Shown here: piece after piece, positions 7,540-61,677 of the stretch
Position numbering within the stretch: position 1 is the first letter of the stretch
How the letters are laid out: each line of letters starts with the position of its first letter
DNA from: a virus
Lineage: Duplodnaviria; Heunggongvirae; Uroviricota; Caudoviricetes
DNA length: 64,000 nucleotides
Reading direction: 5' to 3' (one strand)
Virus record (IMG/VR): IMGVR_UViG_3300023174_004816
Span: 1-64,000 of that record
The notes under the pieces: model-generated
What the model was told of the DNA's origin: nothing
Seen by the model: the letters and a program-made list of their open reading frames with translations, nothing else
Databases searched by the model: none
Translations under genes and position numbers: made by a program

Positions 7540-7551
7540 AAGAGAAAAACA

Positions 7552-9891: not shown

Positions 9892-10556
9892 TGCTTGAAA
9901 CCTGTTGCGATATCCTTGTAGATGCATACAAGCGTAACTGGATTACCAGTCGTGATGGAAATATTTCTATACGTCATCACGACCGTGATCACTTTTACAT
10001 TACTCCCAGTGGTGTACGTAAACAAACCATGCAACCAGATCAGTTTAAAAAAATTCTGATCAAACCACCTAATTCTTGGAACGAACTAGGTACTGGTCTA
10101 TTAGCTGATCGGTGGGGATGGAAAGAGTTGCCTTACAGTGATATCAGTTCCAATCTAAAACCCAGCGGAGAACTTCCTCTGCACTTTGGTTTACAAAAAC
10201 AAATGGGACAACATCGCGGAGAAGTACGAGTGGTAGTGCATGTACATCCTACCTACTGTATCGCTGCCATGCATGCTGGAATAGACTTAAGCACTGTCAG
10301 TAACGCCTTTCCAGAGCTTAATCGCTACACTCGAGTGGCACCCAATGTTGGAGATGTTCCGCCAATCAGTCAAGAGCTGGCTGATCAGTGTCACAAAAAC
10401 CTACAGCTAGACAATGAAGGTAACATTGCCTATGACATAGTGGGCATCAAAGGGCACGGTGTTGTGGCCATTGACACAACTCCCTGGCGAGCCTATGAAC
10501 ACATAGAACGCTTAGAACACATTTGCAAGATTGTACTTGCTTCAGGAAAATATTAA
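9891..10556 (+). CDS. class II aldolase/adducin-like protein (putative)
   Basis: VVVHVHPTY resembles the zinc-binding HxH motif of class II aldolases and epimerases; start overlaps the aceA stop (TAATG). Confidence 0.4.
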   Translation: MLETCCDILVDAYKRNWITSRDGNISIRHHDRDHFYITPSGVRKQTMQPDQFKKILIKPPNSWNELGTGLLADRWGWKELPYSDISSNLKPSGELPLHFGLQKQMGQHRGEVRVVVHVHPTYCIAAMHAGIDLSTVSNAFPELNRYTRVAPNVGDVPPISQELADQCHKNLQLDNEGNIAYDIVGIKGHGVVAIDTTPWRAYEHIERLEHICKIVLASGKY

Positions 10557-18496: not shown

Positions 18497-19927
18497 ATGC
18501 TCTTGACATATCTCATGCTCGCGGTGGCATTGTGCTTGAGCGCAGTGGCCGCGTTTTACTCCATAGCCGGATTGGCCGCGATATTCGCCGCCGCCGTGAT
18601 CCCCATTGTGATCATGGGATCTATCCTAGAGGCCGCCAAACTAGTGGTCACAGTGTGGTTGCACGAATACTGGAGCCGTTGCCGCCTAGCAATGAAACTG
18701 TACCTTGTGCCAGCTGTATTCTTTCTCATGCTTATCACCAGCATGGGAATCTTTGGCTTCTTATCAAAAGCGCACTTAGATCAAGCAGTGCCCACCGGCG
18801 ATGTGGCCTCAAAAGTACAGCTCATTGACGAAAAGATTAAAACTGAAAAAGACAACATCGAAGCCGCTCGCAAAGCTCTGCGACAGATGGATGATGCTGT
18901 GGATCAAACCATGGCACGAAGCAATGATGAAAAGGGTGCTGACAAAGCCGCCGCATTGAGACGTAGCCAAGCACGTGAGCGTGGAGTGCTACAAAATGAC
19001 ATAGCCTCCGCACAAAAGAAAATAGCCACTCTCAATGAAGAACGTGCCCCAATTGCCAGTGAGTTGCGTAAAGTAGAAGCTGAAGTAGGACCGATCAAAT
19101 ACATCGCGGCCTTGATCTATGATGACAATCCCGATGCCAACTTATTAGAAAAAGCAGTACGCTGGGTCATCATACTCCTGGTCATAGTGTTTGATCCGTT
19201 GGCTATAATGATGTTGTTGGCTGCCACAGAAAGCCACAAATGGGAACGAGATAAACCTGCAGTTCCTAAAAAACAAGAGGAGACAGACGATGCCGGCAAA
19301 TTGGATGATAATGCTGAACCTGATGCCAAGGATATGGATGGATTGGATGCAGGAAATAGCAATGACCTACAACCCTCTGCTCCGACTATGGGTATTCCGC
19401 CAGAACACTGGGGTGGACAAGACCTAACAGCTCACTTAGAAAAAAAAGATAATGTGGAAGAAATTGTTTTACCAGCAGAAGAAACAGTAGACGACACTGA
19501 TCCTGAAAAACAAGCTCGTCGTGCCTGGAAAGAACTCAACCCACACGATACCATCCATCGTCAAGAACAACTGCTTGAAGAAGGAAAAATAGCTCGTTTG
19601 CCTTGGGAAGATTTACTTACAGCACAAGCCGATGATATTGCACAATTTACCAATGTTGATTTTGGCACCAAGTTTCCAGAAAATCCTGGCAAAGGCGATG
19701 CCTACATACGTGTAGATTACTTGCCAACCAAATTGTTTAAGTGGAACGGAGTTAAATGGATAGAAGTAGATAAAAACACCACGGATAGCTTTGCCTACAA
19801 TGACAATTACATTGATCATTTGATAGCCAAAATTAGCTCAGGTGAATATGATCCTGAATTATTAAATCCCGGCGAACGTGATCAAATCGAACAACGATTA
19901 CGTGCCGACAACAAACTCAACGGGTAA
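18497..19927 (+). CDS. membrane-anchored coiled-coil protein
   Basis: 3 N-terminal TM helices, a long coiled-coil, an acidic linker, and a C-terminal globular domain. Confidence 0.5.
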   Translation: MLLTYLMLAVALCLSAVAAFYSIAGLAAIFAAAVIPIVIMGSILEAAKLVVTVWLHEYWSRCRLAMKLYLVPAVFFLMLITSMGIFGFLSKAHLDQAVPTGDVASKVQLIDEKIKTEKDNIEAARKALRQMDDAVDQTMARSNDEKGADKAAALRRSQARERGVLQNDIASAQKKIATLNEERAPIASELRKVEAEVGPIKYIAALIYDDNPDANLLEKAVRWVIILLVIVFDPLAIMMLLAATESHKWERDKPAVPKKQEETDDAGKLDDNAEPDAKDMDGLDAGNSNDLQPSAPTMGIPPEHWGGQDLTAHLEKKDNVEEIVLPAEETVDDTDPEKQARRAWKELNPHDTIHRQEQLLEEGKIARLPWEDLLTAQADDIAQFTNVDFGTKFPENPGKGDAYIRVDYLPTKLFKWNGVKWIEVDKNTTDSFAYNDNYIDHLIAKISSGEYDPELLNPGERDQIEQRLRADNKLNG

Positions 19928-19930
19928 ACA

Positions 19931-21130
19931 ATGAGTGACCAATCTCAGTATGAAAATTGCAGTTTTTGTAACAAACACAAAGATGAAGTAAAAAAGTTAA
20001 TTGTTGGCAACGAAGTGGCCATATGCAATGAGTGTGTGGAACTTTGCCAGAGTCTGTTAGATGACGATGTCAAAGAACGTCCCAAAGATGCCACAGACAT
20101 CGATCCTCAAGAACTCAAATCCTATCTTGATCAATATGTGATTGGGCAGGATCGAGCCAAGACTGTGCTCAGTGTGGCCATTGCCAATCACTACAAAAGA
20201 ATACAACACAGTACCTCAGACATCGAAATAGACAAAGCCAACATTCTCATGCTTGGCCCTACCGGGTCGGGAAAAACACTGTTGGCCAAGACAGTGGCAC
20301 GATATCTTGATGTACCGTTTGCCATTGCTGACGCTACATCAATCACTGAAGCTGGGTACGTGGGCGATGATGTAGAAAGTCTCATACAACGACTGCTCAC
20401 TGCCGCTGGCGGTGATGTAGAAAAGTGTCGCCGTGGTATCATATTTGTAGATGAGATAGACAAGATCGCTCGCAAAAGCGAATCAGCATCCATCACCAGA
20501 GACGTATCGGGCGAAGGTGTTCAACAGGCCTTGCTCAAAATGGTAGAAGGCACTGTGTGTCGCATACCAGCCGCAGGTGGTCGCAAACATCCAGGCGGGG
20601 ACATGATTGAAATTGACACTCGCAATATTCTATTCATCGCGGGTGGTGCGTTTGTTGGCCTAGATCAAATAGTTAAAAAACGCATGTACGGTACCAGCAT
20701 GGGTTTTGGAGCCACAGTGTCACAGCCCAAAGAAGTCAGTCTTGAGCATGTGGTTCCCGACGACTTGGTCAAGTTTGGACTGATACCTGAATTTGTAGGG
20801 CGATTCCCTAGCTGGGTCAACTTGGATGGTCTGACCACAGCTGATCTTGTACATGTACTCACAGATACCAAGAATAGTTTGATCAAACAGTATCAGCATT
20901 TATTTGCAGTAGACAAAGTTGAACTGGATTTTGAAGATGATGCGCTGACAACCATTGCACAACGATCAGCAGAGTTTGGCACAGGAGCTCGTGCTTTGCA
21001 CAGCGAGCTAGAGCGTGTGCTAATGCCTCATATGTTTAACATCAAACGCTATCGAGACCGCGGCATAAACCGCGTAGTTATTAACAAAGAACAAATAAAT
21101 AATCCTACACCCGTGTACAAGGAGGAATAG
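19931..21130 (+). CDS. clpX: ATP-dependent Clp protease ATPase subunit ClpX
   Basis: N-terminal C4 zinc finger (CSFCNKH...CNEC), Walker A GPTGSGKT, sensor motifs; 399 aa. Confidence 0.9.
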   Translation: MSDQSQYENCSFCNKHKDEVKKLIVGNEVAICNECVELCQSLLDDDVKERPKDATDIDPQELKSYLDQYVIGQDRAKTVLSVAIANHYKRIQHSTSDIEIDKANILMLGPTGSGKTLLAKTVARYLDVPFAIADATSITEAGYVGDDVESLIQRLLTAAGGDVEKCRRGIIFVDEIDKIARKSESASITRDVSGEGVQQALLKMVEGTVCRIPAAGGRKHPGGDMIEIDTRNILFIAGGAFVGLDQIVKKRMYGTSMGFGATVSQPKEVSLEHVVPDDLVKFGLIPEFVGRFPSWVNLDGLTTADLVHVLTDTKNSLIKQYQHLFAVDKVELDFEDDALTTIAQRSAEFGTGARALHSELERVLMPHMFNIKRYRDRGINRVVINKEQINNPTPVYKEE

Positions 21131-21131
21131 T

Positions 21132-21344
21132 TTGGGAAAACGTGTAGAAGTCCGTGATGGCAATGTAGAAAAAGCCCTGCGGAAATTTAAGAAAAAAATA
21201 CAGGAATCTGGTCTGCTGTTCGAACTCAAAGAACGTGAGCAGTATATCAAGCCCACCACTCAGCGCAAGCTCAAGGCATCTGCGGCTAAAAAACGCTGGC
21301 AAAAACATCTACGCAGTCAGCAACTTCCACCCAAACAGTTTTAA
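21132..21344 (+). CDS. rpsU: 30S ribosomal protein S21 homologue
   Basis: GKRVEVRDGNVEKALRKFKKK...YIKPTTQRKLK resembles bacterial S21; TTG start 7 nt after an AGGAGG. Confidence 0.8.
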   Translation: MGKRVEVRDGNVEKALRKFKKKIQESGLLFELKEREQYIKPTTQRKLKASAAKKRWQKHLRSQQLPPKQF

Positions 21345-21562
21345 TGTACATTGTTTTTGATGTAAGATTTCGACACGAATTAGACACAGTCAAAGAGCAA
21401 ATCGCTCAGTGGGCTGAAAAGTATCAAATACAGTACACTCAAAAAACCATAAAATATCAGCACCGCTTGGGTCTCAATCGAGACAAAGAATTTACTCTTT
21501 TCTCAATGACCTGGGAAGGTGTTCCTTACAAAATAGTCAATATCGGCAACGAAGGATATTGA
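21344..21562 (+). CDS. hypothetical protein
   Basis: 72-aa ORF overlapping the S21 stop. Confidence 0.4.
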   Translation: MYIVFDVRFRHELDTVKEQIAQWAEKYQIQYTQKTIKYQHRLGLNRDKEFTLFSMTWEGVPYKIVNIGNEGY

Positions 21563-21651
21563 CAACTCTTGAAAAATCTGTTATAAATATACATGTAGAT
21601 GCCGATGGTCGGGTCTACATAGTCAAACTTGCTTAAACAAAGGAGAAAATT
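21559..21651 (+). promoter_or_regulatory. TTGACA-17-TATAAA promoter plus structured 5'UTR (ROSE-like thermometer candidate) upstream of hsp20
   Basis: -35 at 21559-21564 and -10 at 21582-21587; hairpin TGTAGA...TCTACA at 21594-21619; UUGCU at 21629-21633 can pair with the SD AGGAG at 21641-21645 with a G-G mismatch. Confidence 0.45.
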
Positions 21652-22098
21652 ATGACTAAAATTACATCCCTAGATCTCACACCTTTTTATCGCCAAGCCA
21701 TTGGCATTGATGGTCTTTTTGATCGTCTCATGCACAACATTGATATGGCCAGTGCAAACAATGGTGGTAACAACTACCCTCCCTACAACATCATCAAAAC
21801 TGGTGAGGATTCCTATGAAATCCAAATTGCTGTAGCAGGGTTTGCCGAAGGTGAAGTAGAACTCAACTTCCACGAAGGACAACTTGTGATCACAGGAGAA
21901 AAGAACACAGATGACAGCGACACACAGTACCTACATCGAGGTATCAGTGCCCGTAAGTTCATCCGTACTTTCCAACTCAGTGATTATGTGGAAGTTCGTG
22001 AAGCCACTATCAAAGATGGTATTTTGACAGTGAGTTTGCAACGCATTGTGCCCGAAGAAATGAAGCCAAAGCGTATTGCAATCTCCTACGCAAAATAA
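21652..22098 (+). CDS. ibpA: small heat-shock protein Hsp20 (IbpA-like)
   Basis: YPPYNI, IAVAGFAEGEVEL alpha-crystallin domain, collinear with E. coli IbpA. Confidence 0.85.
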   Translation: MTKITSLDLTPFYRQAIGIDGLFDRLMHNIDMASANNGGNNYPPYNIIKTGEDSYEIQIAVAGFAEGEVELNFHEGQLVITGEKNTDDSDTQYLHRGISARKFIRTFQLSDYVEVREATIKDGILTVSLQRIVPEEMKPKRIAISYAK

Positions 22099-22158
22099 TA
22101 TAATGTAGTAAATACAGTGGAGGGCATGTTGCTCTCCACTCAATAGCAAGGGAAAAAG

Positions 22159-22473
22159 ATGTCCGATACAGCTACGCAAACAAGAACTATAATACAACCC
22201 AGAGAAGATCTCAAAGAACCTCCCATGTTCAAGGTCATATATCTCAATGACAATCAAACTTCAATGGAATTTGTAATCGAAAGCCTGGTAGCACACTTTG
22301 ATTATAACCCTGCCACAGCAGAAAAACTCACTGTAGACATCCATGAAGATGGGTCAGCAGTGGTAGCAATATTGCCCTATGAGTTAGCCGAACAAAAAGG
22401 CATCGAAGTCACTGTGGATGCTCGAGGCGCTGGTTATCCACTACAAGTCAAACTTGAGCCTGATCAGGTTTAA
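22159..22473 (+). CDS. clpS: ClpS adaptor protein
   Basis: PPMFKVIYLNDNQTSMEFVIESL core resembles ClpS. Confidence 0.85.
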   Translation: MSDTATQTRTIIQPREDLKEPPMFKVIYLNDNQTSMEFVIESLVAHFDYNPATAEKLTVDIHEDGSAVVAILPYELAEQKGIEVTVDARGAGYPLQVKLEPDQV

Positions 22474-23261
22474 AAGTTTATTTCAATTCGTTTAGGATAA
22501 TACACCGATTTTGACCAAGGTGTATTTCCACGACCTCTGCAGTTGTTGACATAACGCACTCCGCCTAACCAGGAATCTACATCACCGTGGTAGTGACCAA
22601 AACACCAGGTGTGTATCTTTGATTCTGTGTCATTGACCACTGCTTTCATGATATGACTGTTGCCAGACGAATTTAATCTGTAGGTGTTGGCCAGTTCATT
22701 GTCGTGTTTGATAAGATCCACACAAGGAACAGTGTGTGTGACTATGACTATTTTCTTAACGTCTTGATGCGTTTGCAGTCGTTCTACAGATTTGGCAAGA
22801 TATGCAAAGTCATTGAGGGCCATGGATTCAACAGCATCCACAGCGGTTTGGTTAATTTGATAACGATCTCGAAACCACTCTCGACTTTGGTCGTAGTCAA
22901 TGTAAGGATCCATGTCAAAGGTCCACCAAGCATTGGTTCCTAAAAAGGCCACACCATCCACAATACAAACATTGTCTTGTAGGTATGTTACATTGGGTAT
23001 GTCTTCCAATTCTTCGGCCAATGACCGATAACTTTCCCCAAGGTCGTCTAAATTAAATCTATGTTCATCGTTGCCGTCTATGTAAAAAACAGCTCGATAA
23101 CGTTCGCCCAGGTGACGAAGAGTTTCAATCACCGTGGTACGGTCTCGAGATATATCACCAGCTACCACGCACATCATGCTAGTGGCTTGACCGGTCCAAT
23201 CAAAAGGTTGGTCCCAGGTTTCTATATGCAAATCGGAAATTAAATCAAAGGCAAGTTTCAT
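22470..23261 (-). CDS. calcineurin-like metallophosphoesterase
   Basis: DLH, GDISRD, GNDEH and GHYHGD metal-binding motifs. Confidence 0.7.
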   Translation of the reverse strand: MKLAFDLISDLHIETWDQPFDWTGQATSMMCVVAGDISRDRTTVIETLRHLGERYRAVFYIDGNDEHRFNLDDLGESYRSLAEELEDIPNVTYLQDNVCIVDGVAFLGTNAWWTFDMDPYIDYDQSREWFRDRYQINQTAVDAVESMALNDFAYLAKSVERLQTHQDVKKIVIVTHTVPCVDLIKHDNELANTYRLNSSGNSHIMKAVVNDTESKIHTWCFGHYHGDVDSWLGGVRYVNNCRGRGNTPWSKSVYYPKRIEINF

Positions 23262-23286
23262 GATACATATTTACAGGAGAACAATC

Positions 23287-23661
23287 ATGCATATAATATT
23301 TGGCGATGAAGCTGCCGCAGAAATGGCACAAAAATACACAGTATTAAAATTGGATAAAATCCAATTGGACCCCACAGGCCCAGTGTTAAACAGTTATTGT
23401 GTGATCGACAAAGATCAGGTACAGTTACAGGACATTGGCAAAATGGAAAACATAATCAATTTGCATGCCAAGCTCATGGAAAACTATTGTCGGAAAAATT
23501 GGAGTTTTTGTGAACAGGCCTTGGAGCATTTGCACGGAACATTCAACGGTACCTTAAACTCCTTCTACGATCATATTTCAAATAGAATTGCTAAGTACAA
23601 AGATACGGACCCTGGTCCGGATTGGAACGGCGTTTATGAAAAATACAATAGCGGCAATTAG
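23287..23661 (+). CDS. hypothetical protein
   Basis: ACAGGAGAACAATC-ATG RBS; the ORF track starts at 23260. Confidence 0.4.
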   Translation: MHIIFGDEAAAEMAQKYTVLKLDKIQLDPTGPVLNSYCVIDKDQVQLQDIGKMENIINLHAKLMENYCRKNWSFCEQALEHLHGTFNGTLNSFYDHISNRIAKYKDTDPGPDWNGVYEKYNSGN

Positions 23662-24028
23662 TGTCGCACTAACACTATCAGCTTGCGCACTATTTCCTAG
23701 CTACTTTGACACCAACGAGCAAGCTCGTATCACTGACATCATCCTGCTGAGCCAGGATGATTCTGTTTGTAGTCGTGCCGATATAGCCACAGTGGCTCGA
23801 GACATTGATCATTCTGCACAGTGGTTAAAAATTTACAGTGCATCTATTCCCAGAAACAATGCGCTCACAGACATGACACGTAATCTTGCTGGTGTGACAC
23901 AGGACTTCCGATCAGCATACCAAAAAGAAAAACAGCCTAGTCAATTTTATTGCCGTGCCAAGATAAAAATAATAAATGAAGCCACGACTCGCATGCTAGA
24001 CGTCAGTGGGAGGAGACCTAGATCATGA
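23636..24028 (+). CDS. putative lipoprotein
   Basis: Signal peptide with LTLSAC lipobox. Confidence 0.4.
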   Translation: MKNTIAAISVALTLSACALFPSYFDTNEQARITDIILLSQDDSVCSRADIATVARDIDHSAQWLKIYSASIPRNNALTDMTRNLAGVTQDFRSAYQKEKQPSQFYCRAKIKIINEATTRMLDVSGRRPRS

Positions 24029-24267
24029 GCATAATAGACGTAGTTAATAATTTTTGTAACAGTGAAGGCGAACTTGGCAATCGTGTTAGATTGGCCGTGA
24101 GTTACAGAGATGCACTAGCCCGTGGCGACATTGATGATCGTGAATATCAAGAACTCTTGATTGACCTACAACGTCTAGAAAACATACAGTTAAGTGCAGG
24201 CGAACTAGACGCACAAATTGCATTCAATGAATGCATTGAACTGTTGAAAAATCTTCCTATTAGATAA
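24025..24267 (+). CDS. hypothetical protein
   Basis: 80-aa ORF, ATGA overlap. Confidence 0.4.
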   Translation: MSIIDVVNNFCNSEGELGNRVRLAVSYRDALARGDIDDREYQELLIDLQRLENIQLSAGELDAQIAFNECIELLKNLPIR

Positions 24268-24319
24268 AACGCACTCTTATTTGTGTCGGCTTTAGTTAAA
24301 TACAACTAGGAGCTCGCAA

Positions 24320-24769
24320 ATGAAAAATATAATAATTGCGGCGCTGGGCATCGCAATAATGCCTGTTGTTGCTGTTTCTGCACCACTGCCAGACTTTAGT
24401 TTTAAAAGTCCTGCTTTTAACGGAGTAGGTTATAGCAGTCACGTCCTCACAATCGAGAATCAAGAAGCCACACGTCGTAAAGCTCTTGAAGACAAAATAC
24501 AATCTGCCATAGACAAAGCGGCTGCTGATGCTAAAAATACAAATCTGGCAAAGTTTTTAAACAATCTAGAAAGTCGTATCTATGCTCAGATCTCGCAGAA
24601 CTTGGCCACGGCTATGTTTACTGCTGGAACTTCAACGTCGGGTTCGTTTAACTTTGAAGGCAACGTAATAGAGTGGACCAAAGACAGCACCAGTGTTTAT
24701 CTCACAGTGAGAGACACAGTGGGCAATACCACACAGATCACAGTGCCATTGGGACAGTTTACTTTCTAA
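24320..24769 (+). CDS. csgF: curli assembly protein CsgF-like
   Basis: Signal peptide then FSFKSPAFNGVGY (cf. CsgF FQFRNPNFGGNPNNG) and C-terminal QITVPLGQFTF (cf. TIQVSGLQNNSTDF); AGGAG RBS. Confidence 0.6.
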   Translation: MKNIIIAALGIAIMPVVAVSAPLPDFSFKSPAFNGVGYSSHVLTIENQEATRRKALEDKIQSAIDKAAADAKNTNLAKFLNNLESRIYAQISQNLATAMFTAGTSTSGSFNFEGNVIEWTKDSTSVYLTVRDTVGNTTQITVPLGQFTF

Positions 24770-24770
24770 T

Positions 24771-26015
24771 ATGAAAAAAGTATTAACTATATTCTCTTTG
24801 ATCACAATATTAAGTGGATGTGCCATCATCCAAAGCACCAGCTTGAACGAAACAGATCCCACAGTGTCCGCACAAAGAGAGAATATCAAAAAAGATTTTG
24901 ATACTCTTCCGCCACCAAGTTCGGGCAAACCAATCAGTGTGGCAGTTTACAGTTTTAAAGATTTAACCGGCCAACGTCGTCCACAAACCAATGTGGCAAG
25001 TTTATCAACAGCAGTCACACAAGGTGCTGAAGCATTTTTAATCAAGGCACTACAAGATGTTGGCAATGGTCGTTGGTTTGATGTAGTTGAGCGTGTGGGC
25101 ATAGATAACCTGACCAAAGAACGTCTGATCATTCGTCAGATGCGTGAAGCCTACGAGGGCGCCAACGCTAAACCACTCATGCCCATGCAGTTTGCTGGCA
25201 TGATCATTGAAGGTGGTATTGTTGGGTACGACTCATCGATCAACAGTGGTGGCGCTGGTATGCGAGTGTTCGGTATTGGTAAACAAACACAATGGACACA
25301 GGATGTGGTCACAGTAAGCCTACGTGCTGTGAGTGTAAACACAGGCAAAGTCTTGGTCACAGTTGCAGTACAAAAAACTATTTTAGGATCTGCTGATTCA
25401 GTGAGTGCATTGAAATTCTATGACATGGGCACCAAAGCCTTTGAAGCAGAAACAGGACTCACGATCAATGAGCCCGGAACTTATGCAGTGAAATCAGCCA
25501 CTGAAGCCGCTGTGGTAGAGTTGATCAAAGAAGGACAACGCAAAGGAGTATGGGATTTTAAACCGGAGACACCACCCCCAACACCACAAGTTCAGTCTGG
25601 ATCTCCGGCTCCAGTGATTGCCAGCGAGATTAAGACTGTTTCACCGCAAGTCAAGGAGAACAAAAATGAGTTGGTTCAACCACAAACCCCCAAAGCATCC
25701 GCCGCTGCCACCACAACAACACCCGCACCGGTTCAGCCCAATATCGGAAAAGATACGCGAGGGGACAAAACAGAAAGTAAACCCGTTGTCACAAAAACAG
25801 AAGAACCCAGACCGCTGTTCGGACAACGAAGATTAAAAGAAGCTGAGTTCATTTATAAAGAACCCAATGATCGTAGTCAAAAAACTTGGCAGTTCAAAAA
25901 AGGCACAGTGGTAGACATCAGACAACCAGGCAGCGATGGTTGGGTCAGAGTCACTGACAGCGAGCAACGAGGGGGCTGGATTCGTGTGGAACAACTAGAA
26001 GAACTTGGCCGTTAA
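24771..26015 (+). CDS. csgG: curli secretion channel CsgG-like lipoprotein with a C-terminal SH3-like extension
   Basis: Lipobox LSGC; SVAVYSFKDLTGQ, GGIVGYDSSINSGGAGMRVFGIG and TVSLRAVSVNTGKVL collinear with E. coli CsgG; extra Pro/Thr-rich linker plus an SH3b-like C-terminus. Confidence 0.8.
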   Translation: MKKVLTIFSLITILSGCAIIQSTSLNETDPTVSAQRENIKKDFDTLPPPSSGKPISVAVYSFKDLTGQRRPQTNVASLSTAVTQGAEAFLIKALQDVGNGRWFDVVERVGIDNLTKERLIIRQMREAYEGANAKPLMPMQFAGMIIEGGIVGYDSSINSGGAGMRVFGIGKQTQWTQDVVTVSLRAVSVNTGKVLVTVAVQKTILGSADSVSALKFYDMGTKAFEAETGLTINEPGTYAVKSATEAAVVELIKEGQRKGVWDFKPETPPPTPQVQSGSPAPVIASEIKTVSPQVKENKNELVQPQTPKASAAATTTTPAPVQPNIGKDTRGDKTESKPVVTKTEEPRPLFGQRRLKEAEFIYKEPNDRSQKTWQFKKGTVVDIRQPGSDGWVRVTDSEQRGGWIRVEQLEELGR

Positions 26016-26149
26016 AATGCTGTCGCTTAATAAAACAGCAATAACGATTAAATATTTAAGTAGCATCAGCCTCATGCAGTTTAAGGAGGTAAAATAATTA
26101 TAAGGTCAAAAAGACCAGGGAGCTGGGACAGGGAAATATAAACCCGTCC

Positions 26150-26971
26150 TTGATGGAAATGAAAAACAGAATGACAGGCGCCGGTGGGTTGTCGAGTAAA
26201 TTACTCACCCTAATGTTGGTGTTAGGCATTAGTTGTACTGCAAATGCTGTAGACAACAGCATATACATAGATCAAAGCGGAGACACCGCCACGATCAACA
26301 TTACCCAAGACGGTTCTACCAACCGTGTCAAGGGTATACTGCCTAGTGGAAACCCAGGATTGACCACAGACCCAGCAACAATCACAGGCGATGGCATTTT
26401 GGTCAACGTCCAACAGGTTGGCAATAACAACACATTAAATCTTGGAGTTAATACTACCACTGCTTCGGGAGGAAATCCTACAACAGTCAACTACTCAGTG
26501 TCAGGCAACAACAACCAGGGTATGATTAACTTAAACAATGATGGTCAAGGTACCAATCAAAGCACTACATTAGATATCACACAGACCGGTGGAACCAACG
26601 TTGCTGATGTGGGTATCTTGGGAGCCAACAACAGTCTGACAGTGGATCAGAGCGGCGGCGGCGCAACTATCTATGCTAGAATCAATGCCGATGACACCAT
26701 GTCTACAGTGACAACCAGTGGTGGCTCGGGCAACGAAGTCAGCTTAAATCTCACAGGCAACAAAGGACAAGCAGATGTAACCATTGTTGGTGGATCCAAC
26801 ATTGTAGGGATCACACAAAGCGGTGGTGGTACATTGGGTCATAAGTCCACTGTTAACCTTGACGGGTCCGGTAACAATGTAGCCATAACTCAGGGCGGTA
26901 CCATTGACACCAATGTCAATTTGAAAAGTGTAGGATCTGGTAATGCTTTTACTATCAACACTCATAACTAA
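26150..26971 (+). CDS. curlin-repeat (CsgA/CsgB-like) secreted protein
   Basis: Signal peptide; repeated Q-x-G-x-x-N curlin repeat units (IDQSGDTATINITQDGSTN, VDQSGGGATIY, ITQSGGGTLG). Confidence 0.55.
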   Translation: MMEMKNRMTGAGGLSSKLLTLMLVLGISCTANAVDNSIYIDQSGDTATINITQDGSTNRVKGILPSGNPGLTTDPATITGDGILVNVQQVGNNNTLNLGVNTTTASGGNPTTVNYSVSGNNNQGMINLNNDGQGTNQSTTLDITQTGGTNVADVGILGANNSLTVDQSGGGATIYARINADDTMSTVTTSGGSGNEVSLNLTGNKGQADVTIVGGSNIVGITQSGGGTLGHKSTVNLDGSGNNVAITQGGTIDTNVNLKSVGSGNAFTINTHN

Positions 26972-26980
26972 GAGGGAACA

Positions 26981-28108
26981 ATGAAACTATGCAAGCTACT
27001 ACAATGCGCACTCTTGCTGAGTATATCACTGAACTGCATCGCGGCGATAGGTACCATAACAGAACAACTCAATGCGCCGGGTTCGATACAACGATCCACG
27101 GCAACAGTGACGGGGACCAAGGGGACCAAGGTGGAGATGCAGGACTCAGTCAAGACCCAGCAGGGCAAGCTGGGGATAACCTTTGACGATCAAACTCGTG
27201 TACAGGTCAACGAGAACTCCAAGTTAGTCATTGACAGCTTTGTATATGATCCTAAAAAGGGTGCGGGTAAACTGGCAGTCAATGTGGCCTTGGGCACAGT
27301 GCGTTATGCTTCGGGACAGATTGCTAAAAATAGTCCACAGAATGTGGCAGTCAACACACCAACTGCCACTATATCAGTTCGTGGCACAGATTTTTCAGCC
27401 ACAGTGGATGAGTTGGGGCAAAGCACTATTATTTTGCTACCTAGTTGTCCTAATGATCGCAGTAATAGAACTGCACGAGATATTGAGCGTGATTGCAAAA
27501 CTGGCGAGATTGTGGTAGAAAGCGATGCAGGACAAGTTATTCTCAATCAACCTTTTCAAGCCACAAGAGTGGACAGTCGCGGTGCCGCCCCTAGTGCGCC
27601 AACCATACTAAAGCTCAGTGAAGATGCCATTGGCAATATGTTGATTATGTCGCCACCACGCGAACTCAGAGAAGATAACACTCGTAACCGTGCAGAACTT
27701 AGAGGAGCCTTGGACATAGACTTCCTCAAAGAACAAGGCCTGGTCAATGCTCTTGACGCACAAGAAAAAGAAATATTTCAAGACAAGTTGAGTCGTAACT
27801 TTTTAGATCAAGACTTCTTGGCCAACATCTTGGACATTGTGAACGCACAGTTGGCCGCACAGTTAGACTTGTTGAATAAAAACAACAACAGCAAACTATT
27901 ACCTGATTGGTTACCATTGACTGGTGTCACTGTGGATCTTCAAGAGCCCAAAGTAACCCTAGCCAGAGACGATGGTAGCAACATCATGAGTGTTACAGTT
28001 CCAACCTCACAAAATCCCACAGTGATTATGTCACAGGGGTGGGTCATGGACATTAAGAATCGAGTCAACAATGGAGGCAGCACAACTATTACGCTGATAC
28101 AAAAATGA
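26981..28108 (+). CDS. secreted FecR-domain-like protein
   Basis: Signal peptide; beta-rich region (VRYASGQIAKN...ISVRGTDFSATVDELG) resembling a FecR/DUF4880 fold; assignment tentative. Confidence 0.35.
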   Translation: MKLCKLLQCALLLSISLNCIAAIGTITEQLNAPGSIQRSTATVTGTKGTKVEMQDSVKTQQGKLGITFDDQTRVQVNENSKLVIDSFVYDPKKGAGKLAVNVALGTVRYASGQIAKNSPQNVAVNTPTATISVRGTDFSATVDELGQSTIILLPSCPNDRSNRTARDIERDCKTGEIVVESDAGQVILNQPFQATRVDSRGAAPSAPTILKLSEDAIGNMLIMSPPRELREDNTRNRAELRGALDIDFLKEQGLVNALDAQEKEIFQDKLSRNFLDQDFLANILDIVNAQLAAQLDLLNKNNNSKLLPDWLPLTGVTVDLQEPKVTLARDDGSNIMSVTVPTSQNPTVIMSQGWVMDIKNRVNNGGSTTITLIQK

Positions 28109-28851
28109 TAGAAAAAGATCATTACAAAGCCAGTCTTGAATACTGGCGACGTTGGGAAGCAGAAAAACAAGCATTGTCCAAGCGAAATCTAATAAACGGT
28201 TGTTTTATAGCTGTTGGATTATTTGCAATGCCTTTTGTCATACTATTTGCTTTGATTGCAATGACTGGCAAGGCTCACGCACAAAACCAAATAAATCAAG
28301 GTCTGAATCCTGGCGTGGCAATTCCTGCTGCCAGCACAGTCTATGTTGATCAAATAGGTAACTACAATACCATTAACATAGAACAAAAAGACACAGTGGG
28401 GCACTCAGCCACTGTTACCATGGGCAAACTCAGCGATGTTGATCATACCACAGTTTCTATACTACAACAAGGCACAGGAACAAAAACAGCATCAGTTGAA
28501 ATAAAAGCCGGCACATACAACAATGCTGTCATCAATCAAGATGGGGCAGGCAATCACTTGGCCAGCATACAGAATCTCAATGGCAGCAACAACGGCATAA
28601 CTGTCACGCAAAGCGGAGCAGGACAGCATGAGTTCAACGTGATTGGCGGAGCAGGGACCACAAACAGCAACAATTCTATCACTGCCACACAAAGTGGAGG
28701 AATAGGTGCAGAGAAATGGTTTAATGTTTGGCTCAACGGTGCCAACGGCGCCACTGTCAATGTACAACAAACAGACAACAATCCTGGGCAGGCATCATTT
28801 AACATACAATGTCAAACAGGTTGTGGAGCCTGGAGTTACATACGTCAATAA
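28105..28851 (+). CDS. second curlin-repeat (CsgA-like) protein
   Basis: Signal/TM segment then VDQIGNYNTINIEQ, INQDGAGNHLASIQ, VTQSGAGQHEF and ATQSGGIGAE repeats. Confidence 0.5.
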   Translation: MIEKDHYKASLEYWRRWEAEKQALSKRNLINGCFIAVGLFAMPFVILFALIAMTGKAHAQNQINQGLNPGVAIPAASTVYVDQIGNYNTINIEQKDTVGHSATVTMGKLSDVDHTTVSILQQGTGTKTASVEIKAGTYNNAVINQDGAGNHLASIQNLNGSNNGITVTQSGAGQHEFNVIGGAGTTNSNNSITATQSGGIGAEKWFNVWLNGANGATVNVQQTDNNPGQASFNIQCQTGCGAWSYIRQ

Positions 28852-28928
28852 CTCAGTGTTTATTTTGTTGAGAAAACACTTTAAATACTTTACATGAAGT
28901 AACGTCTAGAGCTAGACTAACATAATGT

Positions 28929-28957
28929 TAAGCCCCTTTCGGGGCTTTTTTATTTCT
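28929..28957. terminator. bidirectional rho-independent terminator
   Basis: AGCCCCTTTCGGGGCT stem-loop with TTTTTT on the + side and an A-run on the - side, between convergent genes. Confidence 0.7.
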
Positions 28958-29639
28958 TAAGCAAAAATTTCTTTTTTAAATGTAACCGAACTTGGTTGTA
29001 TTGTAACGCAGTGATTGCCACAGCGGCGGCCCAGGGCACTACCTTCACAGCCCATTCTGCAGTTTGTGCCCACCAACTGGCCAACAACGGTTCTTTGGTG
29101 GCCATTTGCACAGCAACCGCAAACAACACAAACGATCCCACAAACACACTGTCTGGAAAACGTTTGAGAATCTTACTGACCAATCCAGCTCCAAACAAAA
29201 TGATTGGCACTGAGATTAGCAAGCCAGCAATGACAAGAACAAAGTTTCCATTGGCTGCCGCGGCAATTCCTAGAGCATTGTCTATGCCCATGACAGCGTC
29301 GGCAACTACAATGGTGCCGATGGCACCCCAGAATGTGTCTTTAGCTTCAACGTTGTGTTCTTCGTTGTTGAAAGCCAATTTCCATCCTATCCACAACAAC
29401 GCCACAGCACCAATTAAACGCAGTCCAGGTATCATTAAAAGATATGTCAGTGCGGCCACACTAACAAAACGTATGGCCACAGCGCCAAAGGTTCCCCAGA
29501 AGATTGCTCGCTTTCGTAAATGTTCCGGAAGTTTGTTGGCTGCCATGCCAATGACTAATGCGTTGTCACCGGCCAACACAATGTCTATTAGTATGATAGC
29601 GAGAAATGCCCACAGGGCTTGTAATGTAAATAACTCCAT
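28950..29639 (-). CDS. TerC-family integral membrane protein (Alx/YkoY-like)
   Basis: ILIDIVLAGDNALVIGMAA and VADAVMGIDNALGIAAAA duplicated TerC motifs; AAGGAG RBS. Confidence 0.85.
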   Translation of the reverse strand: MELFTLQALWAFLAIILIDIVLAGDNALVIGMAANKLPEHLRKRAIFWGTFGAVAIRFVSVAALTYLLMIPGLRLIGAVALLWIGWKLAFNNEEHNVEAKDTFWGAIGTIVVADAVMGIDNALGIAAAANGNFVLVIAGLLISVPIILFGAGLVSKILKRFPDSVFVGSFVLFAVAVQMATKEPLLASWWAQTAEWAVKVVPWAAAVAITALQYNQVRLHLKKKFLLKK

Positions 29640-29644
29640 TTTAA

Positions 29645-29818
29645 TACTCCTTAAAAGAGTATATCATGGATGTCATTCCAATGAATGAGGATTATACGAT
29701 CCATAATATACTATGATATTATGGTCTTGTCCGGAACCTATTTCCTTATGCACCGAGCCGTTAAGCCGAATTGACGACGCATAAAACTCTTATATTAAGA
29801 GTGGACTACTCCCCATGC
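29645..29818 (-). ncRNA. candidate yybP-ykoY (Mn2+) riboswitch in the TerC leader
   Basis: Minus-strand leader begins UGGGGAGUAG (29806-29815), then the hairpin CUCUUAAUAUAAGAG, then GGACAAGACC; the expression platform AUACUCUUuuaAAGGAGUAU sequesters the SD; ykoY itself is TerC-family. Confidence 0.45.
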
Positions 29819-31899
29819 AAGTATTTAGTAAATACATGATGCTAAAGAAAACTACTATTAAAAAATTACTGGTTAGTCCATGGACAGCATTGTTGACATT
29901 GGCACTTATTTTAAGTATAAGAATCGCAGACCCTACATTTGTAGAAAGCATAAGATTACGATATTTTGACACACTGATCACAGCGCAGGCACCCACTGTC
30001 AACAATATCTATACTGTGAACATTGATGAAGCCGCCCTAGACAAGTATGGACAGTGGCCTTTGCCCAGAGTCAACTACGCAGAAATTGTACAGGATCTAT
30101 ATACCCGTGGCGCTGGACTGGTTGTACTCAACGTGCTCATGGCTGAGCGCGATCGCACTGGAGGTGATGGTGCGCTGGCTGCCATGCTACGACATTATCC
30201 TGTGGTCTTGGGCTCAGTGCCCAGCGCCAAAAACAAAAACACTCCTCGTGTGCCAGGATCAGCTGTGTTGAATCCAGAGTGGATGGATCAGATAGTCACA
30301 TACCCAGGATTGATCGCCAACGTTTCTCAGTTGGAACGCAGTGCCGCTGGTGTGGGCATTGTCAATACCTTGCCAGAAGTAGATGGTGTAAATCGTCGTG
30401 TGCCCTTGATAGTCACAGTTGACAGCAAACTATATCCAGGGTTGGCTCTGGAAACTCTGCGTGTGGCCACAGGCAATGACACTTTCCAGGTCAAACTGTT
30501 CGAAGGCGGCGTTGAAAAGATGCGCTTGCCTGGAGATGTTGGTATACTCAACACAGACAATCTTGGACGCATCTGGATTGACTGGAGTCAGCAATCAAAA
30601 TCAGTGTCACTGACCAGCTTGCCCAAAGACTTTGGTGGTGCTATCGTTATAGTTGGTGCTACTGCCGCAGGCATTGCCAACCCTGTGCCCACCAGCCGTG
30701 GTGCTGTGTTTCCACATGAAGTACAGTCCGCTGTGATAGGTACCCTGGCAAACGGCGTGAATATTCAACGGCCAGACTGGGCGGATGGTGCTGAAATCAT
30801 ATTCATAGCAGTGTTGGGTGTGATCATTATTGGATTATCGAGGTGGACTTATGCAGGTATTCTTATATCTATTGTGGGGATCATTGCCCCTATTGTTGCC
30901 AGTCGTTTGGGCTTCAATGAGTGGCGAATCTTGGCAGACGCAACGGCAAGCACGGCTGGTCTTGTTCTCGTGGCTCTGCATACTTACGGCGTTAAGTTTG
31001 TAAGTGAGTTCTTACAGAAACAAGCCATAAAGAAACAGTTTGCTGGCTACTGTTCAAAAGAAGTGGTAGAGATGCTACAGAAAGATCCAGACTTGATCAG
31101 GCGAGGTGTGCGCAAAGACGTATCAGTTATGTTCAGTGATCTACGTGGCTTCACACCCATTGGTGAACACTACGGCGATGACGTAGGCGGACTAGGCCGG
31201 TACATGAACGGTTACATGGATGCTATCAGCCAACCCATGATGGACAACAAAGGCATGATCATCAAGTATGTGGGCGATGCCTCCATGCACATACATGGTG
31301 CTCCCATTGAAGATCCTAATCACGCTAGAACTATCGTTAGGGTAGGATTGGAGATGTTGGACAAGGTAGACGAGTATACCAAGCTGATGGAAGCACAAGG
31401 CCTGCCACCTGCGGCCATGGGTTGGGGTTGTAATTCAGGTATTGGCTTTATTGGCGAGATGGGTTCAACAGAACGACACAGCTATGACATCTTGGGTGAC
31501 ATGGTGTCAACAGCCGCAAGACTAGAAGCACGTTGTAAAGCCTATGGTGTGTTATGTATCATTGGCGCTGAAACATACAACAGAACCAAAGACGATTTCT
31601 TCTATTTGTTGCTGGACAACTTACAGCCTAAGGGAAAAACAGTAGCAGATTTGATCTACACAGCACTACGTACCAAGGGCGCAGACTACTCAAAAGATCG
31701 AGCACAGCATGAAGAGATGCATGCCCTGTACCGTCAGAAAAAGTTTGACGAGGCCGCCGCAATGTGTAAAAAACTAGCAGGTAACTTTGGCGGGCAGATG
31801 GACAAGTATTACAAGATCTGGATTGAGCGTTGCGAGTTCATGAAGCAACAAGATTTAGGTGATAACTGGAACGGCGAATTTATTGCTCACGAGAAATAA
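29815..31899 (+). CDS. CHASE2-sensor membrane-bound class III adenylate/guanylate cyclase
   Basis: N-terminal TM, ~300-aa periplasmic CHASE2-like region (LDKYGQWPLPR), 2-3 TM helices, then cyclase motifs VSVMFSDLRGFTPIGE and KYVGDASMHIHGAP. Confidence 0.8.
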   Translation: MQVFSKYMMLKKTTIKKLLVSPWTALLTLALILSIRIADPTFVESIRLRYFDTLITAQAPTVNNIYTVNIDEAALDKYGQWPLPRVNYAEIVQDLYTRGAGLVVLNVLMAERDRTGGDGALAAMLRHYPVVLGSVPSAKNKNTPRVPGSAVLNPEWMDQIVTYPGLIANVSQLERSAAGVGIVNTLPEVDGVNRRVPLIVTVDSKLYPGLALETLRVATGNDTFQVKLFEGGVEKMRLPGDVGILNTDNLGRIWIDWSQQSKSVSLTSLPKDFGGAIVIVGATAAGIANPVPTSRGAVFPHEVQSAVIGTLANGVNIQRPDWADGAEIIFIAVLGVIIIGLSRWTYAGILISIVGIIAPIVASRLGFNEWRILADATASTAGLVLVALHTYGVKFVSEFLQKQAIKKQFAGYCSKEVVEMLQKDPDLIRRGVRKDVSVMFSDLRGFTPIGEHYGDDVGGLGRYMNGYMDAISQPMMDNKGMIIKYVGDASMHIHGAPIEDPNHARTIVRVGLEMLDKVDEYTKLMEAQGLPPAAMGWGCNSGIGFIGEMGSTERHSYDILGDMVSTAARLEARCKAYGVLCIIGAETYNRTKDDFFYLLLDNLQPKGKTVADLIYTALRTKGADYSKDRAQHEEMHALYRQKKFDEAAAMCKKLAGNFGGQMDKYYKIWIERCEFMKQQDLGDNWNGEFIAHEK

Positions 31900-32550
31900 A
31901 TGACAAACCCTACTATAGCATTGTTTATACATCAACCAAAATGTTCTATACAAAGTGGCAACGGTATAATACAAGCGTTGGGAGATCATTATAAGTTTAA
32001 AATTTTTACAAAACACAGTTTAGAAAAAGATTTTTTTGACAATATTGACATGGTGGCCTTCCCAGGAGGCACTGGAGATTCAGAAAGTTTTGATTATCTC
32101 ATGTCTGACCATCTTGGTCGTATCAAAGATTTTGTTGACAAGGGCGGCAGATATCTTGGTATTTGCATGGGAGCATACTGGGCAGATCATCACTATTTTG
32201 ATCTATTAGATGAAGTTGAAGCACAACAGTACATCAGAAGACCAGGAACAGACACTCGTAGACCACACCCCAAAGCACTTGCTGTGAACTGGCAAGGACA
32301 AATTGAAAAGATGTATTTTTATGATGGTTGTGCCTTGGTTGGCAATGCTGAAAAGTTTAAAACGATTTCTAGTTATGCCAACGGTGATGCCATGGCCATA
32401 ATACAAAACAGGGTAGGACTAATAGGGTGTCATCCAGAAAGTGAAAAAAACTGGTACACAGAATATCATCAATGGATGCGTCCGCATTGGCATCACAGAC
32501 GCCATCATCAACTACTGCTGGATTTTGTCAATCAGTTGATGGAACGTTAG
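31900..32550 (+). CDS. class I glutamine-amidotransferase-like (DJ-1/BPL_N-like) protein
   Basis: GGRYLGICMGAYWA nucleophile-elbow-like Cys; ATG overlaps the cyclase stop (TAAATG). Confidence 0.4.
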   Translation: MTNPTIALFIHQPKCSIQSGNGIIQALGDHYKFKIFTKHSLEKDFFDNIDMVAFPGGTGDSESFDYLMSDHLGRIKDFVDKGGRYLGICMGAYWADHHYFDLLDEVEAQQYIRRPGTDTRRPHPKALAVNWQGQIEKMYFYDGCALVGNAEKFKTISSYANGDAMAIIQNRVGLIGCHPESEKNWYTEYHQWMRPHWHHRRHHQLLLDFVNQLMER

Positions 32551-32867
32551 CCTTCGCCGGCTGCCGCTGTTTTCTTGTCGTCCTCGTCTGCGACCTGATT
32601 GATTTTTTGTTCAGCTATCACACGTTCGTGATCAATGGTTTTGCCACGTAAATGTAGCACAACATCAACCTTTTGATTTAATCGAATTAAATCGTTGTCT
32701 AACATACGGATACGATCTATCAAGGCAATCAGCACTGTGTTGGCTTCTTTGAGCACAGGTTTGACTTCTTTGGTGGCCCAGGTCCATACATAATAAATCA
32801 TGTACCCCATGCCCCCGGCTGCCACTATGGGAAAGCCGTATTTGTTGATCATTGCCACTAAATCCAT
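32547..32867 (-). CDS. small single-TM protein, paralogue B
   Basis: MDLVAMINKYGFPIVAAGGMGYMIYYV and ALIDRIRMLDNDLIRL; paralogous to 33347-33625; AAAGGAAAAAG RBS. Confidence 0.5.
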   Translation of the reverse strand: MDLVAMINKYGFPIVAAGGMGYMIYYVWTWATKEVKPVLKEANTVLIALIDRIRMLDNDLIRLNQKVDVVLHLRGKTIDHERVIAEQKINQVADEDDKKTAAAGEG

Positions 32868-32880
32868 TTGTCTTTTTCCT

Positions 32881-33027
32881 TTAAAATGCTAACCCAATCA
32901 AACAACCCAACACAAATGCTATGATTGAAAACTTAAACAGGTCATGATCATGCCATACAGGTTGTGTTTTTAAATATTCTTTTGTGTGTGCAGGTAAACT
33001 GTCGTACCATGCAGTCCATTTACTCAT
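32881..33027 (-). CDS. small tail-anchored membrane protein (48 aa)
   Basis: MSKWTAWYDSLPAHTKEYLKTQPVWHDHDLFKFSIIAFVLGCLIGLAF; overlaps the upstream stop; not in the ORF track because it is under 60 aa. Confidence 0.3.
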   Translation of the reverse strand: MSKWTAWYDSLPAHTKEYLKTQPVWHDHDLFKFSIIAFVLGCLIGLAF

Positions 33028-35339: not shown

Positions 35340-35945
35340 ATGACAGAGACAACATCAAAGTCAGGAACGCACCAAGTTGGCATGGTCAAACTTTTCGTAA
35401 GTCTGCCCCGTGTGATTGGATTGATGATAGTAATGTCAATTTTAATCACTGTCACAAATTTGCGTCTGGATGCGCTGGCATCTAGCAACGAAGGCCAAGC
35501 CCATAGGCAAGGTTTCGTTTCTGTAAGCGACCGCACTAAGCAGTTAGAGTGCTTGGCTCGCAATATCTATTGGGAATCTGCCAACCAGCCTTTTGAAGGC
35601 AAAGTGGGTGTGGCCCAAGTCACGCTGAATCGCGTGGAAGATGGACGTTTTGGAAAAGACGTCTGTGGAGTAGTATATCAAAAGAATGTGGTGTATGAAA
35701 AGGTCATCTGCCAGTTCTCTTGGTACTGCGAGCCCACACACAAGGTGCGTCCTGTGCATCCTGCACTGTGGGACGAAAGCATGGAAGTGGCCAAAAAGGT
35801 CCTGTTGGAAGGATTCCGTTTGCCCAGCTTGAAAGAAGCTCTTTATTTCCACGCCGACTACGTAAACCCTGCTTGGCCCAACATGATACGAGTGGCCACG
35901 TTTGGTAATCATGTGTTCTACAAGAAAAAGGAATCAAAATCATGA
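35340..35945 (+). CDS. membrane-anchored cell-wall hydrolase (SleB/CwlJ Hydrolase_2 domain); endolysin candidate
   Basis: N-terminal hydrophobic anchor LFVSLPRVIGLMIVMSILITV; ECLARNIYWESANQPFEGKVGVAQVTLNRV matches the SleB-family core. Confidence 0.65.
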   Translation: MTETTSKSGTHQVGMVKLFVSLPRVIGLMIVMSILITVTNLRLDALASSNEGQAHRQGFVSVSDRTKQLECLARNIYWESANQPFEGKVGVAQVTLNRVEDGRFGKDVCGVVYQKNVVYEKVICQFSWYCEPTHKVRPVHPALWDESMEVAKKVLLEGFRLPSLKEALYFHADYVNPAWPNMIRVATFGNHVFYKKKESKS

Positions 35946-37532: not shown

Positions 37533-37533
37533 A

Positions 37534-51907: not shown

Positions 51908-51968
51908 TGCAATTCTTTTCTATGTATGCTATACTTATCTAGGATACTTACATTATCAAGGAGAAATA

Positions 51969-61521: not shown

Positions 61522-61677
61522 AATGATTTGCACAGGTGCAGTGCCTCCCCAATTGATCATGGGCATGGAAATGTATCAGACCTATATGAAAGGTATGATG
61601 AATTATTGGCAACTATATGCCACTCTTACAACTCTGGATTATTGGACCATGTATCTAAACCAGTTCCGGGTGAACGA

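Follow-up and report, generated by a model that had tools for sequence, protein, structure and literature searches.

Why should a phage carry the genes of a curli secretion system together with the fibre subunits that such a system exports? The question is raised by five open reading frames (ORFs) at 24320-28851 in the first 64,000 nucleotides (nt) of the IMG/VR virus record IMGVR_UViG_3300023174_004816, the stretch of DNA analysed here and referred to as the window. An original prediction, made from the letters alone, had described the block as a curli-type export-plus-substrate module in a phage genome, and this description is borne out by matches to the Pfam families CsgF, CsgG, Curlin_rpt and FecR and by the viral context of the window. 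We consider it probable that the window holds an alphaproteobacterial-type type VIII (curli) secretion module of a large uncultured phage, through which infected cells would export amyloid-type fibres. The block and its downstream neighbours comprise the following features, with protein lengths in amino acids (aa).

24320..24769, plus strand: CsgF homologue (149 aa; Pfam CsgF, 53 bits against a cut-off of 25.8, E 4.9e-14)
24771..26015, plus strand: CsgG lipoprotein channel with an SH3 tail (414 aa; Pfam CsgG at residues 53-262, 152 bits against a cut-off of 20.8, E 1.4e-44; SH3_4 at residues 360-409, 31.8 bits against a cut-off of 24.1, E 1.2e-7; LPAM_1)
26150..26971, plus strand: cur1, curlin-repeat protein 1 (273 aa; Pfam Curlin_rpt, 28 bits against a cut-off of 20.7, E 2.1e-6)
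26981..28108, plus strand: secreted FecR-domain-only protein (375 aa; Pfam FecR, E 6.6e-11)
28105..28851, plus strand: cur2, curlin-like protein 2 (248 aa; family profile against a CsgA structure)
28930..28947, no strand: GC-rich hairpin AAGCCCC-TTTC-GGGGCTT followed by a T-run, the top terminator-like site of 21000-33000
28950..29639, minus strand: TerC-family membrane protein (Pfam TerC, E 4.4e-42)
29815..31899, plus strand: fusion of a CHASE2 sensor and a class III adenylate/guanylate cyclase (694 aa; CHASE2, E 1.4e-37; Guanylate_cyc, E 5.9e-13)

The ORF listing confirms the five genes at these coordinates, tightly packed on the plus strand. The gaps between them (1, 134, 9 and -4 nt) are operon-like, the CsgF stop lying 1 nt ahead of the CsgG start and the cur2 start overlapping the FecR stop by 4 nt; CsgF, which had been counted as the second of the five genes, is the first. 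With the cur2 stop (28851) on one side and the stop of the convergent TerC gene (28950) on the other, the hairpin is likely a two-way terminator that closes a CsgF-to-cur2 transcription unit. A hydrophobic export signal is found at the start of all five products. The 134-nt gap at 26016-26149, between CsgG and cur1, is the sole sizeable intergenic space in the block; it is AT-rich, contains a small hairpin (GCTGT…ACAGC) and may hold an internal promoter or attenuator that sets the subunit:channel ratio.

The channel protein carries the lipobox LSGC at residues 14-17, and solved structures of E. coli CsgG match its residues 8-265 at E 9e-46. With 169.5 bits against the NCBIfam model NF011731, whose equivalog cut-off is 505, it is by sequence a homologue and not an NCBI equivalog of E. 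coli CsgG. The signal peptide of CsgF ends in ...VAVSA, and the mature protein begins with an F-x-S/N-P-S/A-F-x-G motif, the best-kept part of CsgF from phages to bacteria, which we take, from the E. coli CsgG-CsgF structures, to be the segment that inserts into the CsgG barrel. A sequence search of the PDB gave no solved-structure match for CsgF.

The original prediction also held that two secreted curlin-repeat proteins flank the FecR-domain gene, and this agrees with the export signals of both and with their profile matches to CsgA structures. In the first of them, cur1, for which the ATG at 26153 is the likelier start, a signal peptide ending in ...CTANA is followed by a conserved mature N-terminus, (V/A)DNSIYIDQxGD, and then by Q-x-G-x-x-N-type repeats. 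The cur1 family profile (A4) matches 8c50_A, a CsgA homologue from Pontibacter korlensis, at E 3.5e-18 and the E. coli CsgA fibril 8enq_A at E 1.5e-4. For cur2, about half of the homologues at 50-65% identity match PF07012, and a profile of 32 family members (A1) matches the solved CsgA 8c50_A at E 9.2e-13; the cur1 and cur2 families are themselves homologous (hhalign probability 98.7%, E 2.5e-16). Thus, when hidden Markov models (HMMs) were run on the four ORFs for which the curli assignment had been made, CsgF, CsgG and cur1 passed their Pfam cut-offs and cur2 alone fell below, its assignment being supported by the family profile. The AlphaFold model of cur2 (predicted local distance difference test, pLDDT, 85) has an N-terminal helix and then 14 regular strands, a predicted beta-solenoid, in line with the approximately seven strand-turn-strand repeats of the protein, which ends in a conserved motif, C-x3-4-CG-x2-W-x-Y. 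At its N-terminus (28105-28290) a long, charged helix of about 30 residues leads into a hydrophobic segment and a cleavage-like site, AHA|Q. Some homologues, 230-239 aa in length, have this long N-terminus as well, and most of the rest (about 189-200 aa) begin with a short classical signal peptide; the additional stretch may represent a signal anchor, a lengthened signal peptide or a wrongly called start.

How widely the module is shared was surveyed by tblastn of the window proteins against 80 IMG/VR loci, Melnitz and HTVC008M (82 viral loci). The original prediction had asked whether homologous phage genomes carry the same block, and they do: in essentially every locus the order is small heat-shock protein (sHSP), ClpS, approximately 3 kilobases (kb) of variable sequence, CsgF, CsgG, cur1, FecR, (cur2), a further 0-5 kb of variable sequence and the cyclase. 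Among the 80 IMG/VR loci, CsgG was found in all (median identity 63%), CsgF in 79 (63%), cur1 in 75 (45%), the FecR-domain protein in 73 (60%), the cyclase in 56 (76%) and cur2 in 23 (47%), and the absences mostly coincide with contig ends. The cur2 count is misleading, because in all 58 of the loci that hold both FecR and the cyclase the gene directly 3' of FecR encodes a protein of 190-850 aa that is rich in G, N, Q, T and S (46-58%) and has curlin-type motifs. The second fibre slot is therefore always filled, by genes of widely variable length. Identity is lower among the exposed subunits (45-47%) than among the channel, cap and sensor proteins (60-76%), a sign of faster evolution, and the Q, G and N ladder positions are nevertheless invariant among the members of both subunit families, which argues for selection on fibre subunits and not on the pore alone. 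A conserved channel, cap and sensor combined with fast-evolving subunits on a fixed ladder are as would be expected of exposed fibre subunits under selection. At a guess, cur1, with its near-constant length and conserved DNSIYIDQ N-terminus, could be the nucleator or anchor and the length-variable cur2 the main subunit. Relatives are also abundant in metagenomes, where at least 6,700 homologues were found both for CsgG and for the FecR-domain protein.

No gene of the module is better conserved than the cyclase (76% median identity over the 56 loci), whose position matches that in Melnitz, in HTVC008M and in the bacterial locus L092; we regard it, on gene order and conservation, as a conserved sixth member. 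TerC occupies the position between cur2 and the cyclase in only two of the 80 related viral loci (L019 and L029, 81-83% identity) and is an insertion, in opposite orientation, outside the conserved module. Immediately after the cyclase, 31900-32550 encodes a class I glutamine-amidotransferase-like/BPL_N protein, and roughly twelve related loci also have such a gene beside the cyclase, before or after it.

A complete set of this type in a phage, which had been called unexpected, has been published before (PMC7029224, PMC9004378, PMC9599517), and the lack of CsgD and CsgE and the presence of FecR and the cyclase as additional genes are also pointed out in that literature. The cultured Pelagibacter phage HTVC008M (KC465899) and the cultured Methylophilales phage Melnitz (MZ577095-98) are annotated with CsgF, CsgG, a 'curlin associated repeat protein', a 'FecR domain protein', a second curlin-repeat protein and an adenylate/guanylate cyclase. 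Zaragoza-Solas 2020 described the curli cluster in pelagimyophages and proposed 'sibling capture' (PMC7029224), and Tominaga 2020 reported curli genes in a T4-like virus assigned to Flavobacteriaceae (PMC7198788). Buchholz 2022 built models of the Melnitz CsgG and CsgF and suggested a part in the timing of lysis (PMC9004378). Wittmers 2022 found CsgA/B-like subunits, FecR and the cyclase in myophages and podophages, traced the module to Alphaproteobacteria, detected viral transcripts in ocean metatranscriptomes, remarked on the lack of CsgE and considered superinfection exclusion, cell aggregation and import as possible functions (PMC9599517). The gene order of this published type VIII secretion module, known from pelagimyophages, Melnitz-type methylophages and HTVC023P-type pelagipodophages, is identical to that of the window; both lack CsgC, CsgD and CsgE, all products are secreted in both, and in both CsgG has alphaproteobacterial affinity. 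The window differs in several respects. Its CsgG is only 43% identical to those of HTVC008M and Melnitz and has a linker and SH3 tail, TerC, the one insertion in this gene order, stands ahead of the cyclase, and the carrier is a different and larger lineage, with contigs of 200-350 kb and conserved sHSP-ClpS neighbours. While the podophage version has a histidine kinase upstream of CsgF (Wittmers 2022), the window shows none there, the ORFs of 23260-24267 having no Pfam, PHROG or NCBIfam kinase match. The module thus belongs to an already published kind, and what is new is the lineage that carries it, a CsgG-SH3 architecture restricted to viruses, a second fibre gene that is universal but variable in length, and the conservation of sHSP and ClpS as neighbours.

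A cellular counterpart is found on a 397-kb Henriciella contig (locus L092 of a metagenome-assembled genome, MAG), where CsgF, CsgG, a 504-aa repeat protein, a FecR-domain protein and a CHASE2/cyclase follow one another amid metabolic genes. The order is that of the window, CsgG is 46% identical, and CsgE, CsgC and CsgD are likewise absent; however, this cellular locus has a single repeat gene and none between FecR and the cyclase, and its CsgG has no SH3 tail. With the enterobacterial csgBAC/csgDEFG system the phage module shares the CsgG lipoprotein channel, CsgF and two curlin-repeat subunits of the Q-x-G-x-x-N type, and CsgG, CsgF and two curlin subunits are sufficient for curli according to a report cited in PMC7029224. 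Whereas E. coli and Salmonella curli involve the regulator CsgD, the gate/adaptor CsgE and the chaperone CsgC, the phage module is without all three, and it forms a single co-directional unit with FecR-domain and cyclase genes in place of two divergent operons.

The lack of CsgD and CsgE and the extra FecR gene had been noted in the original prediction, and indeed no Pfam or NCBIfam match to CsgE, CsgC or CsgD was obtained in the block or in the three ORFs upstream. Immediately 5' of CsgF, 23588-24267 contains two small ORFs, for a probable lipoprotein (23588-24028, true start likely at MKNTIAAISVALTLSAC) and an 80-aa protein (24025-24267). In the 82 viral loci no homologue of either was found, nor do they match any Pfam, PHROG or NCBIfam family, and as stand-ins for CsgE, CsgC or CsgH they were ruled out on these grounds; since no locus holds relatives of them, they are not core parts of the module.

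We hypothesize that, during infection of a double-membrane host, all products would cross the inner membrane via Sec, that lipidated CsgG would form an outer-membrane channel and that CsgF would dock in this channel by its conserved N-terminal motif. The two curlin-family proteins would then be threaded through the channel in an unfolded state and assemble extracellularly into amyloid-type fibres of beta-solenoid structure, probably with cur1 as nucleator or anchor and cur2 as main fibre subunit. Such fibres would coat or clump infected cells, with the likely benefit that rival phages are blocked or potential hosts are kept close. The FecR-domain protein and the CHASE2-cyclase would probably turn an envelope or secretion signal into a cyclic nucleotide, and the flexible linker and SH3b domain of CsgG would hang in the periplasm, probably as a peptidoglycan tether or as a replacement for the CsgE cap.

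Several points weigh against fibre export. No experiment has shown fibres from a phage curli module, and Buchholz observed no clumping of Melnitz-infected cells (PMC9004378). Because CsgE and CsgC are absent, channel gating and the control of premature aggregation are left unexplained. The constriction residues of the window CsgG are unlike those of E. coli, L78 and S77 standing opposite the F and N of 'NFSTAV', and the single cur2 sequence misses the Pfam cut-off, with four stretches giving Curlin_rpt 13.7 bits (cut-off 20.7) and E 0.063. The pairing of FecR with CHASE2 is based on gene neighbourhood, and the AlphaFold2 model of the FecR-domain protein was unusable (pLDDT 41.8, the alignment being too uniform), so that the fold of its C-terminal half is left unpredicted.

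Some of these points would fit the proposal made by Buchholz for Melnitz, in which CsgG, with or without CsgF, is an outer-membrane leak that acts as a 'pinholin/secretin-like' lysis timer, the repeat proteins having no fibre role. A channel without CsgE would be ungated, the divergent constriction and the unclumped Melnitz cells agree with a simple pore, and an endolysin-like gene (35340-35945; phrog_938, E 1.2e-21) lies approximately 3.4 kb 3' of the cyclase. However, both curlin-family genes are kept, with an invariant Q/G/N ladder, in every testable locus, CsgF has retained its CsgG-docking motif, an outer-membrane channel has no means of depolarising the inner membrane, and in the cellular counterpart these genes occur outside any lysis context. 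We therefore regard a pore without fibres as unlikely. An ungated CsgG might alternatively take up larger nutrients or cofactors, which FecR and the cyclase would report, as considered by Zaragoza-Solas and by Wittmers. The absence of CsgE and the presence of a sensor-like pair beside the channel are compatible with import, but two conserved secreted curlin-family proteins and CsgF would be left without explanation, and the anti-sigma part, through which FecR is linked to transport regulation, is missing from the FecR-domain protein; we regard uptake as a distinctly improbable function of the module.

Could the region instead be bacterial, that is, a chromosomal curli operon or a mis-assembled contig? 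Scans of the window turned up no terminase, capsid or portal gene, so that the placing of the block 'between phage hallmark genes' in the original prediction was too strong, and many genes look cellular (isocitrate lyase, TerC, ClpX, ClpP, ClpS and the sHSP). Against this, relatives of the window CsgG occur on 167 IMG/VR contigs of up to 289 kb, with the same gene order, and homologues of neighbouring genes on contigs of up to approximately 350 kb. The 476-aa protein encoded at 18497-19927 has phage-only homologues, in pelagiphage Mosig (42% identity) and in the jumbo phages XacN1, SCTP-2 and Xoo-sp13, and a phage-type ATP-dependent DNA ligase matches 1768 phage records. The window also has PHROG virion-protein-family matches, a ribonucleotide reductase, an endolysin-like gene and prohead-protease/ClpP-like genes, nearly all of its genes lie on one strand, and it has no tRNA. 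In a set of bacterial and archaeal genomes that represents each of 185,579 species once, the top CsgG relatives do not exceed 52% identity and align in the core region only; the complete gene order is seen in just a few 'bacterial' loci, for the most part on short MAG contigs. A viral origin of the window is well supported, and a bacterial one, raised at the outset as what would undo the phage assignment, is rejected on this evidence as very improbable. Megablast of 20000-32000 against 50,697 phage records gave no match, and the phage is therefore uncultured and distant from all deposited genomes.

Short MAG contigs with the phage-type module are binned to Rhodobacteraceae, Pirellulales, Polynucleobacter, Flavobacteriaceae and Maricaulis (L084-L088, L093 and L119). 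Two of them, L085 and L086, also have the phage sHSP-ClpS neighbours, and for this reason contigs of their type look like mis-binned phage DNA; the whole group is probably mis-binned phage contigs and could serve as host hints.

An anchor resembling that of the Caulobacter holdfast (HfaA/HfaB/HfaD), in which secreted repeats attach a polysaccharide adhesin, would suit the alphaproteobacterial ancestry of the module and a weak NCBIfam HfaB match of CsgG (34.6 bits, E 1.1e-8), but it is hardly credible given the 169.5 bits of the CsgG model, the presence of CsgF, a curli-system protein, and the match of the repeat proteins to CsgA structures. Amyloid decoration of the virion, one of the roles first suggested, was ruled out, since all five products have Sec-type signals and would be expected to leave the cytoplasm, the site of virion assembly.

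Fibre export by infected cells thus being the reading that we favour, the next question is how a channel without CsgE would be controlled, and here the C-terminus of CsgG deserves attention. That it carries a Pro/Thr-rich linker and a C-terminal SH3b-like domain had been foreseen and is upheld by the SH3_4 match. The core (residues ~8-265) is followed by a linker rich in Pro, Thr, Lys and Glu (~266-345) and by the SH3b-like domain (~346-414, window 25806-26012). In the CsgG alignment (A2) the core is highly conserved and the linker variable in length and composition (Pro, Thr, Lys, Glu, Ala), while the C-terminal module of approximately 65 residues is again conserved (…RPLFGQRKLKE…FKKGTVV…QPGSEGW.RV.DSE.RGGWIR…), and SH3_4 is annotated in many homologues as well. 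The tail is present in 45 of the 82 viral loci, although not in Melnitz or HTVC008M, and in none of 80 bacterial loci, a sample made up of the best 80 of 478. In the position of the SH3 domain, alphaproteobacterial CsgGs often have long disordered Pro/Ala-rich tails, and two Salinibacter-type CsgGs have a different C-terminal domain. HMMER searches of 1.84 billion cluster representatives gave only 44 matches to the tail, most of them short fragments that match at their C-terminal end and resemble pieces of CsgG tails. The phage-curli papers PMC7029224, PMC9004378 and PMC9599517 do not mention SH3, and a literature search for CsgG with 'SH3 domain' returned no title or abstract pointing to such a fusion.

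The C-terminus of E. coli CsgG lies on the periplasmic side in the solved structures, so the SH3 tail would hang beneath the channel. It probably either tethers the channel to peptidoglycan or substitutes for CsgE in capping, capture or gating. More tentatively, and with considerable doubt, the CsgG channel may have been rebuilt to work without CsgE, nine long-tethered SH3 domains fastening the ring to peptidoglycan or capturing subunits while the FecR-domain protein and the CHASE2-cyclase report the state of secretion or of the envelope as cyclic nucleotide, in a phage circuit that would tie an amyloid coat to host signalling. If so, the CsgG-SH3 fusion would be a virus-specific invention. 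CsgGs with and without the tail form a natural variant pair for probing a CsgE-free curli channel.

The FecR-domain protein carries its FecR domain (residues 57-149) between a cleavable signal (…LNCIAA) and a C-terminal half that is also conserved, and neither an anti-sigma domain nor a membrane anchor was found in it. As it consists of a periplasmic domain behind a signal peptide, it cannot be an anti-sigma factor, and the name 'FecR' should not be taken to mean iron regulation. The nearest NCBIfam models, both under their cut-offs, are Leptospira FecR-domain surface proteins, while sequence and profile searches of the PDB gave no match. It has at least 6785 homologues, the top 120 at 66-76% identity. 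In Burkholderiales, a secreted FecR-domain protein recurs next to a CHASE2 sensor in a biofilm-switching operon (PMC5192318). This known pairing and the conservation of the cyclase, the highest in the module, lead us to read the FecR-domain protein and the CHASE2-cyclase as a probable sensor pair of the periplasm, with cyclic nucleotide as its output. The Burkholderia 'BiofilmReg' operon is alike in placing a secreted FecR-domain gene beside a biofilm-linked membrane sensor with an extracytoplasmic CHASE2 domain (PMC5192318). In contrast, its output is a histidine kinase with a response regulator where the phage module has a nucleotide cyclase, its FecR-domain protein also carries LysM, and the FecR and CHASE2 genes of the phages are split by the curlin gene and, in this window, by TerC too.

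Phage curli modules are already known to be widespread in the ocean. To these the window adds a second group of uncultured phages, much larger and very abundant, in which the same six genes recur as a stable, core-like feature, and the curlin gene after FecR, the invariant ladder, the fast-evolving subunits and the CsgF motif together argue that selection acts on the subunits and not just on the pore. Should fibres indeed be formed, a large share of the functional amyloid on bacterial surfaces would stem from phages, with effects on aggregation, particle formation and competition between phages.

The surroundings of the block include a quality-control set, consisting of a ClpX-like ATPase (19931-21130), an sHSP (21652-22098) and ClpS (22159-22473), with ClpP/prohead-protease-like proteins further downstream (49752-50333 and 51879-52562). 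The sHSP-ClpS pair lies upstream of the curli block in 73-74 of the 80 related viral loci, a neighbourhood that may reflect a common genome backbone or a functional link to the handling of aggregation-prone subunits. The window as a whole is an accessory-gene-rich part of the phage genome. At 5224-10556, the large and small subunits of ribonucleotide reductase are followed by isocitrate lyase (8680-9891; Pfam ICL, E 4.9e-102), a glyoxylate-shunt enzyme and as such an unusual phage auxiliary gene, and by a class II aldolase (9891-10556). Other genes encode a NifU-like Fe-S assembly protein (1494-1883), a UDP-glucose dehydrogenase (37486-38781), a radical SAM protein (52562-53851), a cysteine dioxygenase-like protein (56895-57359) and a gamma-glutamyl cyclotransferase-like protein (61528-62136). 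Near the start of the window, 2923-4782 encodes a pectate-lyase-fold protein (Pect-lyase_RHGA_epim, E 3.9e-16), which may be a tailspike or a depolymerase.

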